A DNA stretch of 60,123 nucleotides, counting the filler, from Sphacelaria rigidula (taxonomy: Eukaryota), in NCBI GenBank assembly GCA_964200075.2. It is 9 parts of 9 records of this genome, joined end to end, with 100 filler letters (N's around TTAATTAATTAA, not from the genome) between each part and the next. Parts side by side here need not be neighbours in the genome. Positions count along the whole stretch, not along the records: positions 1 to 6,592 come from CAXNAA020019173.1; 8 more parts are not named here. The stretch is one strand, 5' to 3'. Position 1 is the stretch's first letter, and each line of letters opens with the position of its first letter. The notes under the pieces were generated by a model. That model was not told the origin of the DNA. It did no database searches and worked only from the letters and a program-made list of their open reading frames with translations. A program made the position numbers and the translations under genes. Positions 2,498-3,519 of the stretch are shown here, piece after piece.

Positions 2498-2631
2498 CTG
2501 TATAGTCAATCGTGTTTCGTACGATACAGCACGCCAGAAGATAGAGAGGGGGTGGAAACACGGCGCGGGCGCGGGCTGTGAGAGCATGGCTTGGGCAGCG
2601 TGGGCTCGCACCGAGCATAGATGAAACTGTA

Positions 2632-2659
2632 AGGGGAGGGGGTACTCATTTGTTGCTTG
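2632..2659 (-). mobile_element. Ultra-short LINE/SINE 3'-end insertion with 12-bp TSD
   Basis: gatgaaactgta (2620-2631) - aggggagggggtactcatttgttgctt - gatgaaactgta (2659-2670), then gggg. Confidence 0.8.
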
Positions 2660-3519
2660 ATGAAACTGTAGGGGAAGACCGATAAACAGAGGAGATGGTT
2701 TTTGTACTCTTGTATTTTCACTCAATTCAACACGCCCTCACCACTGGACAAGCAAGATGCACATGGGCAGAAAATTTCTGAGAGATCAACGGAACTGATC
2801 GACGCTTACTGCACGGGGAAATAATGTATACAGGATATCTGTCATTAAACGCGCAACGTCGACAAGTGCCACTCCCAACCATCGGGTTGACCCAATCTCG
2901 TCTCACCACGCAACATCGTAACGCCTTCATCCAAAATAAAAAAAACTATACCATATATTACGTGCTGTACACTCACACACTATAGTACCGAGTGCGAGCA
3001 TATTCGATTAGACCCCCTGCTCGAGACCGAGTCCTTATAATCCACTCTCACGTGGACAGAAGTCATCACTCCCCCCACGAGTGGTGCTACGGTAGGGGTT
3101 GCACTTCTTCGAGCAAAAAGGTTTCTCGGGGCTGCCCGGAGTGCTGGACGGTTTATTTTGTGAATCGGCATCATTTTTACATCATTTTTACATGCAAAAG
3201 ACTGAAAATGATGCCGATTCACGAAAAGGCTCCTGCGTGGAAACACCGTGTTCCTGGGAGCCCGGTCGCCGGAGATTTGGGTTGCACATGAAGCCCAATG
3301 TATTTGTGCTCCTATAAGAAGGAGAACCCCAGAAAGAAAAAGTGCAACCCCTACCGTAGCGTTGCTCTAGATCCTGATTTCTTGGTCACCGACAGGCACG
3401 GAAATCCTTGGTCACCTGGATCCGACCATGGAAAACAATTTTCCTGTCCATATCTTGAATTATTTCAGGCCTACTTGACCTCATTGACCCCAGAACAAAA
3501 TCTAATGTAGTGCAATTCG

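Follow-up and report, generated by a model that had tools for sequence, protein, structure and literature searches.

The 27-nt insert at positions 2632–2658 is, with a probability of about 0.78, a real and ordinary retro-insertion: the 3′ end of a LINE, 5′-truncated, aborted and flanked by a 12-bp target site duplication (TSD). It lies in piece 1 (1–6592) of the window, by which we mean the whole stretch of 60,123 nucleotides of Sphacelaria rigidula DNA that was analysed, made of nine pieces of approximately 6.59 kb each joined by N44-TTAATTAATTAA-N44 linkers. The insert, called copy F here, shows no sign of function. On this reading it is a very clean and very short record of one event of target-primed reverse transcription (TPRT). 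The locus is made up of the following features.

2620–2631, no strand assigned: left copy of the TSD, GATGAAACTGTA, a perfect 12-bp duplication; A2631 is the 3′ end on the plus strand
2632–2641, minus strand: tail of the insert, CCCCTCCCCT in element sense, that is (CCCCT)2; the plus strand reads AGGGGAGGGG
2642–2658, minus strand: 3′ end of the LINE, 17 nt, AAGCAACAAATGAGTAC in element sense, with the ORF stop codon TGA
2659–2670, no strand assigned: right copy of the TSD, GATGAAACTGTA; it reads GACGAAACTGTA (T>C at 2661) in a contig of approximately 3% divergence from sequencing run X1
2671–2675, plus strand: target GGGGA, with GGGG at 2671–2674 directly after the right TSD copy

The preliminary description had taken the insert to be no more than a tail joined to the final ~17 nt of a LINE, and this is what we find: 17 nt of LINE terminus, matching the family terminus at 17 of 17 positions, and a 10-nt tail, in total 27 nt. 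On the plus strand, 2642–2658 reads GTACTCATTTGTTGCTT, which is a G followed by the 16-mer TACTCATTTGTTGCTT. G2659 is possibly an eighteenth LINE nucleotide, which gives a 1-nt microhomology with the TSD. A2670 and the GGGG that follows form AGGGG, complementary to one CCCCT unit of the tail. With up to one mismatch allowed, GATGAAACTGTA has two matches in the window, at 2620–2631 and 2659–2670, and none elsewhere; the duplication described earlier, with GGGG after its second copy, thus brackets the insert as claimed. In two flank tests, one with 1000 and one with 500 shuffles, none of the shuffles equalled the 12/12 match between the flanks of F. The 16-mer has five matches in the window at up to three mismatches versus 0.47 expected, and five were reached by none of 100 shuffles; the remaining four matches are the 3′ termini of one repeat family. 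Close 12-nt repeat pairs number 21 in the window versus 0.17 in mononucleotide shuffles, and most of them are satellites. A 12-nt repeat alone is unremarkable here; what counts is that the repeat brackets exactly a LINE terminus and its tail. The other copies of the family in the window are listed below.

2105–2174, plus strand: copy A, approximately 70 nt, with the tail CCTACCCCAC at 2175–2184
2099–2106 and 2185–2192, no strand assigned: TSD of copy A, TCCAACAA, exact over 8 nt (P 0.023), or 10/12 with mismatches (P 0.024)
46632–46698, plus strand: copy B, 66 nt, without a C-run tail and with no detectable TSD; its 5′ flank ends CCCTCCC
6527–6592, minus strand: copy C, incomplete where piece 1 ends, with the tail G + C11
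21079–22585, minus strand: copy D, approximately 1.5 kb, a decayed part of the LINE ORF from the reverse transcriptase (RT) to the C-terminus, with the tail GCCCA
20886–21062, minus strand: copy E, 181 nt, with the tail G + C7 and the flanks CCGTGTACACAT and CCTTGTACCCGT, which match at 9/12 (P 0.058)
26052–26124, minus strand: W26, a diverged copy of approximately 67 nt with the tail GTTCCCCCCACCCCC; no TSD was detected

The terminal repeat that copies D and E share with the other copies comprises 21079–21145 in D and 20886–20947 in E, both on the minus strand. Copy E possibly arose by a 198-nt tandem duplication of the end of D and not by an insertion of its own. A regular-expression scan of the window and the loci for further short C-tailed scraps gave nothing beyond the known copies. 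The word depth over 2631–2671 is approximately 13,600 versus approximately 25 in the flanks, which places the LINE terminus in hundreds of copies. The DNA 5′ of copy B has a tRNA-like look; ARAGORN and Rfam gave no match in the window.

The family is a LINE of brown algae or close kin that encodes an AP-type endonuclease and an RT and is virtually without a 3′ UTR. A 20-mer of the terminus identified four loci on marine metagenome contigs, three of which are real copies (L001–L003); the fourth, L004, was rejected as a chance match. Two further copies were found with this 20-mer on algal contigs binned into bacterial MAGs. L001 and L002 carry a 204-aa frame, open at the 5′ side, that reaches the very end of the element. 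Its C-terminus reads ..CPCGKAIESR.H....C...NGQ.TKASNK, followed by the stop codon, and contains a CPCG..H..C knuckle. The TGA lies within ..AAATGAGTACG, 5 nt ahead of the tail (..AAA TGA GTACG). A protein search listed nine longer relatives of 1328–1360 aa with PF03372/PF14529 and PF00078, and ..ASNK is the C-terminal end in all four that were examined. The search also matched entries named Ectocarpus sp. and Sphacelaria rigidula, and the closest named relatives of the family are brown-algal. In one relative (P0004), hmmscan placed Exo_endo_phos at residues 170–392 and RVT_1 at 740–989, so that the AP-type endonuclease ascribed to the family from the window is borne out. The contig G002:C43 holds an intact copy with an uninterrupted frame of 1382 aa, which makes the protein open to bench testing. 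Similarity to PDB entries over the RT region does not discriminate the clade (L1 ORF2p, E 6.6e-21; R2, E 8.8e-20).

Other searches added little. Among viral contigs the terminus 20-mer had no match, and a protein-profile scan of them also gave nothing; the same kind of scan of genome contigs added only one contig of 330 nt. In the two MAGs, the 17-mer at up to two mismatches gave no further copies, a 317-nt DNA query gave two old copies of approximately 60–70 nt, and a protein query gave, besides G002:C43, nothing but decayed fragments from the interior of other LINEs. Folding of the terminal 101 nt is no more stable than that of shuffles (MFE −24.8 versus a shuffle mean of −25.3, z 0.16), and thus no RNA structure is in evidence for template recognition.

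We aligned the tails after the terminus ..GAGTAC(G). Of the 14 copies, 12 carry four or more consecutive C in the first 20 nt beyond the terminus; the exceptions are copy D, with CCC alone, and copy B, with no C-run. The C-rich tail, often interrupted by T, is thus a trait of the family, as the preliminary description had proposed. Tails outside the window are G + C13 (L013), G + C8 (L001), G + C10 (L002), GCCTCCCCCCCTCCTCCC (L003), C9TC9TCTTCCTCTCT (L015), ACTCCACCCTTCCCCCGCC (L009) and TTTCCCCTCCCCGCC (L010). Tracts of CCCCTCCCC at 1501 and 25558 were considered as hidden LINE tails and were rejected, as they show no similarity to the LINE. A full-text literature search, with Repbase outside its scope, found no description of brown-algal LINE tails or of C-tailed LINEs. 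The passages on poly-C in the part of PMC5381506 that we consulted concern internal tracts in the 3′ UTR of vertebrate L1, not terminal tails. Other searches gave TPRT literature of a general kind only.

Severe 5′ truncation is usual in the family, and F is its short extreme. The distance from the 5′ end to the terminus is 17–19 nt in F, 62 nt in L010, 66 nt in B, 67 nt in W26, 70 nt in L009, 71 nt in A, 181 nt in E, 338 nt in L015 and more than 1057 nt in D (approximately 1.5 kb by tblastn); the copy in G002:C43 is full length. Around the full-length copy, the flanking matches are only 7–8 nt long and do not fix a TSD; where this copy begins could be defined only against a second one of full length. 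As a side observation, the 5′ ends of 5 of these 10 copies fall at 62–71 nt, a cluster that the folding of the terminal RNA, no better than in shuffles, does not explain.

We compared contigs from four public sequencing runs (X1, X4, X5 and X7) with the window over 2180–3400. The runs with the locus include ones labelled algae metagenome and protist metagenome. The X4 and X5 contigs are identical to the window over 2180–3222, and X7 bridges 2549–2756 with no differences. The 1139-nt contig from X1, which belongs to another study, covers 2180–3296 with 32 substitutions and with gaps only at 2771 (1 nt) and 2887 (11 nt). It holds the insert and both repeats; the T>C at 2661 is the sole change there, and it leaves the right copy with 11/12 matches. 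The locus recurs in contigs of four runs, which excludes an artefact in the assembly of the window. All four runs bridge the filled site, and among the 15 of 32 joints listed none skips the insert. The insertion is old or fixed. As no empty site was seen, the pre-insertion sequence was deduced from the TSD alone.

The most probable origin of the arrangement is TPRT of an AP-endonuclease-type LINE that was aborted, with extreme 5′ truncation. The element sense is the minus strand of the window, and the first-strand cDNA is hence the plus strand, on which the tail complement AGGGGAGGGG comes first and the body GTACTCAT.. follows. The empty site would have read GATGAAACTGTA|GGGGAAGACC, with the plus strand nicked after ..CTGTA, between A and GGGG. 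The 3′-OH at A2631 would then have served as the primer and been extended on the C-rich RNA tail to give AGGGGAGGGG. Synthesis would have halted after 17 nt of the element body, and the end of the cDNA would have been joined via the 1-nt microhomology. A second nick in the other strand, 12 nt away, would account for the TSD. In this geometry the G-run lies on the 5′-phosphate side of the nick, and with a 12-bp TSD it cannot be the primer end. A G-ended target strand had been proposed as the primer in the preliminary description; this part does not hold with the 12-bp TSD, for the extended strand ends ...CTGTA-3′ and the GGGG is 3′ of the nick.

What the G-run does, if anything, was judged from the flanks. 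Both flanks can be read in 8 copies, and in only 2 of these, F (12 nt) and A (8 nt), do they share an exact repeat of 6 nt or more. A flank test that tolerates mismatches gave nothing for the five copies besides F, A and E (P 0.66–1.0). Read in element sense, the 5′ flanks are ..TCTTCCCC|TACAGTTTCATC in F and ..TTCGCCCCT|TCCAACAA in A. In both, the tail unit CCCC(T) ends 0–1 nt before the 5′ TSD; in A, the CCCC is at 2094–2097, 1 nt ahead of it. The 3′ junctions also correspond, with a C-run, then extra nucleotides (T in F, AC in A) and then the perfect TSD. A TSD that starts with a tail nucleotide is obtained only with a 1-nt indel in F or two mismatches in A. The per-position frequency of the tail unit in the window is 0.0012, and the joint chance of finding it within three positions of the TSD start in both F and A is approximately 1e-5, a post hoc and uncorrected value. 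The argument was formulated after looking and concerns n = 2 resolved TSDs, too few for a target logo.

The G-primed mechanism of the preliminary description thus has partial support only: the G-run lies beyond the first nick, yet CCCC(T) adjoins the 5′ TSD in both F and A. The simplest reading involves no mutation in F or A and has the G-run beside the nick, not at the 3′ end of the primer. A G-run preference at the nick is suggestive only. We consider it slightly more probable than not that the link between the target G-run and the LINE tail is not due to chance and that the G-run helps in the choice of site, either as a recognition element of the endonuclease or through base pairing to the RNA tail on both sides of the nick. 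A more specific model, which we regard as doubtful, is that the (C)n or (CCCCU)n RNA tail pairs with the target AGGGG or G-run across the future nick and so guides both the cut by the AP-type endonuclease (N/GGGG) and the start of reverse transcription. If true, the template would guide the choice of target in an APE LINE, and the complementary run would sit on the 5′-phosphate side and not at the end of the primer; pairing across the nick would explain the 1–2 extra nucleotides before GGGG at the start of the cDNA in F and A. Were the G-run a rule, the family would test whether complementarity between tail and target, and not A/T richness, sets the targets of APE LINEs, and also on which side of the nick such complementarity acts.

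It is possible, and in our estimate on the unlikely side, that the G-run is irrelevant. The endonuclease would then have little specificity or a different one, the two CCCC flanks would be coincidental, and the C-rich tail would either come from the template or be added untemplated to the nicked end, ahead of any contact with the RNA. The R2 reverse transcriptase is known to add nucleotides in this way before it engages a template, which counts in favour of such a course. So do the six of eight copies that are uninformative, copy B without a C tail, and tails that range from 0 to 13 or more C with T or A interruptions. C and G tracts are also common, with 267 CCCC and 364 GGGG starts in 59 kb and a poly-C of approximately 48 nt at 26620–26668. 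Against coincidence stands the joint chance of approximately 1e-5, before post hoc correction, for a tail unit at the TSD start in F and A. The G before the C-run is kept across sources (C, D, B, L001–L003 and L013), which favours templated tails.

True G-primed TPRT, the mechanism of the preliminary description in a form made consistent, is an unlikely course. Here the nick would fall after the G-run, GATGAAACTGTAGGGG(A)|AGACC, and the G-ended 3′ end would pair with the C-rich tail, much as the T-run does with poly(A) in L1. With the G-run as primer the TSD must be GATGAAACTGTAGGGG(A), 16–17 nt long, and the insert would be only GGGGG and 16–17 nt of LINE. If a 1-nt indel is allowed, the repeat does lengthen to GATGAAACTGTA[A]GGGGA, and the nick would shift with it; with one gap the repeat matches at 17/17 (GATGAAACTGTA-GGGGA). 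Without gaps, the TSD of copy A would be 13 nt counted from the C-run, CCCCTTCCAACAA and CCCACTCCAACAA, with 11/13 matches. In the consulted part of PMC6007223, overlap of the LINE 3′ end with the TSD start is the norm in the L1, CR1, L2 and RTE clades. The difficulty lies in the mutations that this course needs. The left copy reads GATGAAACTGTA-A-GGGGA, and its extra A at 2632 (or the loss of an A from the right copy) has to be a later 1-nt indel. That change would have to fall exactly where the perfect part meets the G-run in F, and copy A would need two adjacent changes at this same border, while the other 12 positions in F and 8 in A remained untouched. No indel is listed at 2632 in the X1 contig; the extra A is present at approximately 3% divergence too, so the indel would be old.

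Endonuclease-independent capture, in which a short 3′ fragment of LINE cDNA or RNA fills a staggered break while it is repaired, with no nick made by the element itself, is very improbable. The F insert is very short, and breaks have been documented to capture retrotransposon sequence in the consulted parts of PMC4516963 and PMC1920257. The clean 12-bp duplication, the tail at the junction in TPRT orientation and the 1-nt 5′ microhomology without deletion of the target are, in contrast, hallmarks of endonuclease-dependent TPRT, and together they argue against capture. Endonuclease-independent L1 insertions typically lack TSDs. Local slippage, which would have duplicated 39 bp with a spacer that resembles the LINE by chance, is close to refuted: short-range repeats are frequent here (the 21 pairs above), but the spacer matches at 17/17 and ends exactly at the family terminus before a family-type tail, and outside the 12-mer the two 39-nt periods show no relation to each other.

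The retro-insertion and its family resemble human and other mammalian LINE-1 in several respects. An APE-type endonuclease and the RT are combined in one protein, the tail is homopolymer-like, TSDs are variable at approximately 8–13 bp, 5′ truncation is frequent, and microhomology is found at the 5′ join. Unlike the poly(A) tail of L1, the tail of this family is C-rich, (C)8–13 or CCCCT-like. The ORF, again unlike that of L1, reaches to 5 nt from the tail, with virtually no 3′ UTR and no AATAAA. The L1 endonuclease consensus in the consulted part of PMC8565326 is 5′-TTTTT/AA-3′, with the homopolymer 5′ of the nick. In the simplest reading of our case the target run is 3′ of the nick (N/GGGG), whereas the T-run of L1 is 5′ of it and is the primer.

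A second comparison is with RTE-related LINEs and SINEs, for which Nishiyama & Ohshima 2018 (PMC6007223) describe, in the part consulted, a split insertion signature with a homopolymer stretch outside the TSD. The TSD start correlates there with a microsatellite-like 3′ end of the template, and the authors propose that the 3′ repeat of the template has an effect on which site is cleaved and/or on priming. As in those elements, so far as that part describes them, the target in F and A has a homopolymer stretch beyond the TSD, on its 5′ side. The stretch there is T and lies approximately 10 nt upstream of the TSD, whereas here it is C at 0–1 nt upstream; the pattern there also comes from many copies and ours from n = 2. 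RTE elements are not known to carry a C-terminal CCHC knuckle, and the present LINE family has one.

LINEs with microsatellite-like tails and matching targets include the I factor with (TAA)n and UnaL2 of the eel, and microsatellite-specific elements have reportedly been described by Kojima & Fujiwara. The family studied here is similar in that its 3′ end is a repeat of a unit (CCCCT in F, CCCCTCCCC in L010) and the same unit is found in the target at the nick. It differs in that the targets of F and A are single units, with no evidence of insertion into a long (CCCCT)n array. The 3′ stem-loop of stringent-type LINEs has no evident counterpart in the terminal 101 nt, which fold no more stably than shuffles (z 0.16). 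Overlap or complementarity between the 3′ end of the element and the start of the target has already been described for L1, CR1, L2 and RTE, and our case would extend this principle to G:C pairs in a family whose tail is unusual.

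Nine pieces of about 6.59 kb each make up the window, a collage in which spacing and neighbourhood across the linkers carry no meaning. The linkers are listed below together with the repeats and other retroelements.

Linkers, repeats and other retroelements in the window
3090–3365: MITE-like element, about 275 nt long, bounded by terminal inverted repeats of 18 nt, CTACGGTAGGGGTTGCAC ... GTGCAACCCCTACCGTAG
6593–6692: linker, N44-TTAATTAATTAA-N44; the others start at 13285, 19977, 26669, 33360, 40051, 46742 and 53433
16341–17588, minus strand: another retroelement, whose ORF encodes an integrase zinc-binding domain (PF17921, E 1.6e-10)
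22639–22840 and 23328–23700: satellite of 40–41-nt units, TTGAGTACG..CTCAAATTT, in direct and inverted arrays
26620–26668: poly-C tract, about 48 nt long and interrupted by a single A and a single G, closing piece 4
45275–46021, minus strand: RT fragment, 28–34% identical to the C-tailed LINE

When contigs from public sequencing runs were aligned to the window, X4 and X5 each yielded a second contig that lacks 154 nt (2701–2854). These second contigs carry A>C at 2685, a change also present in the X1 contig. They may come from another haplotype of the locus (2700–2855) or from a paralogue of it. Contig word depth over the nearby MITE-like element reaches approximately 169,000, compared with about 25 in its flanks, which implies that the element exists in thousands of copies.

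The 5′ ends of the C-tailed LINE lie 62–71 nt from its terminus in half of the visible cases (5 of 10). Three of these copies are in the window, at 2105, 46632 and 26052, and two are at loci outside it (L009 and L010). Such clustering suggests a hotspot for truncation or a favoured minimal unit, and no stable RNA fold accounts for it.

Directly 5′ of the copy at 46632–46698 (copy B), residues 46545–46631 resemble a tRNA T-arm with a ..CCA end, followed by TTCCCTCCC. This segment may be a tRNA–LINE chimera or a SINE-like head. ARAGORN and Rfam made no call at 46545–46631.

The C-tailed eukaryotic LINE was also located on contigs binned to two bacterial MAGs, at L016 (G002:C43, 116–4192) and L017 (G001:C325), and LINE fragments occur on at least 10 more contigs of G001. 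An uninterrupted ORF of 1382 amino acids is present among the MAG-binned copies. Both MAGs are contaminated by algal DNA. The 5′ region of the element on G002:C43 holds another copy of about 65 nt, recognised by eye and in inverted orientation.

The LINE terminus is absent before the poly-C tract at 26620–26668. The two satellite arrays flank a spacer of about 500 nt, and the satellite adjoins the 5′ end of the LINE copy at 21079–22585 (copy D, minus strand). Given its low identity to the C-tailed LINE, the RT fragment is assigned, on sequence comparison, to a second LINE family.
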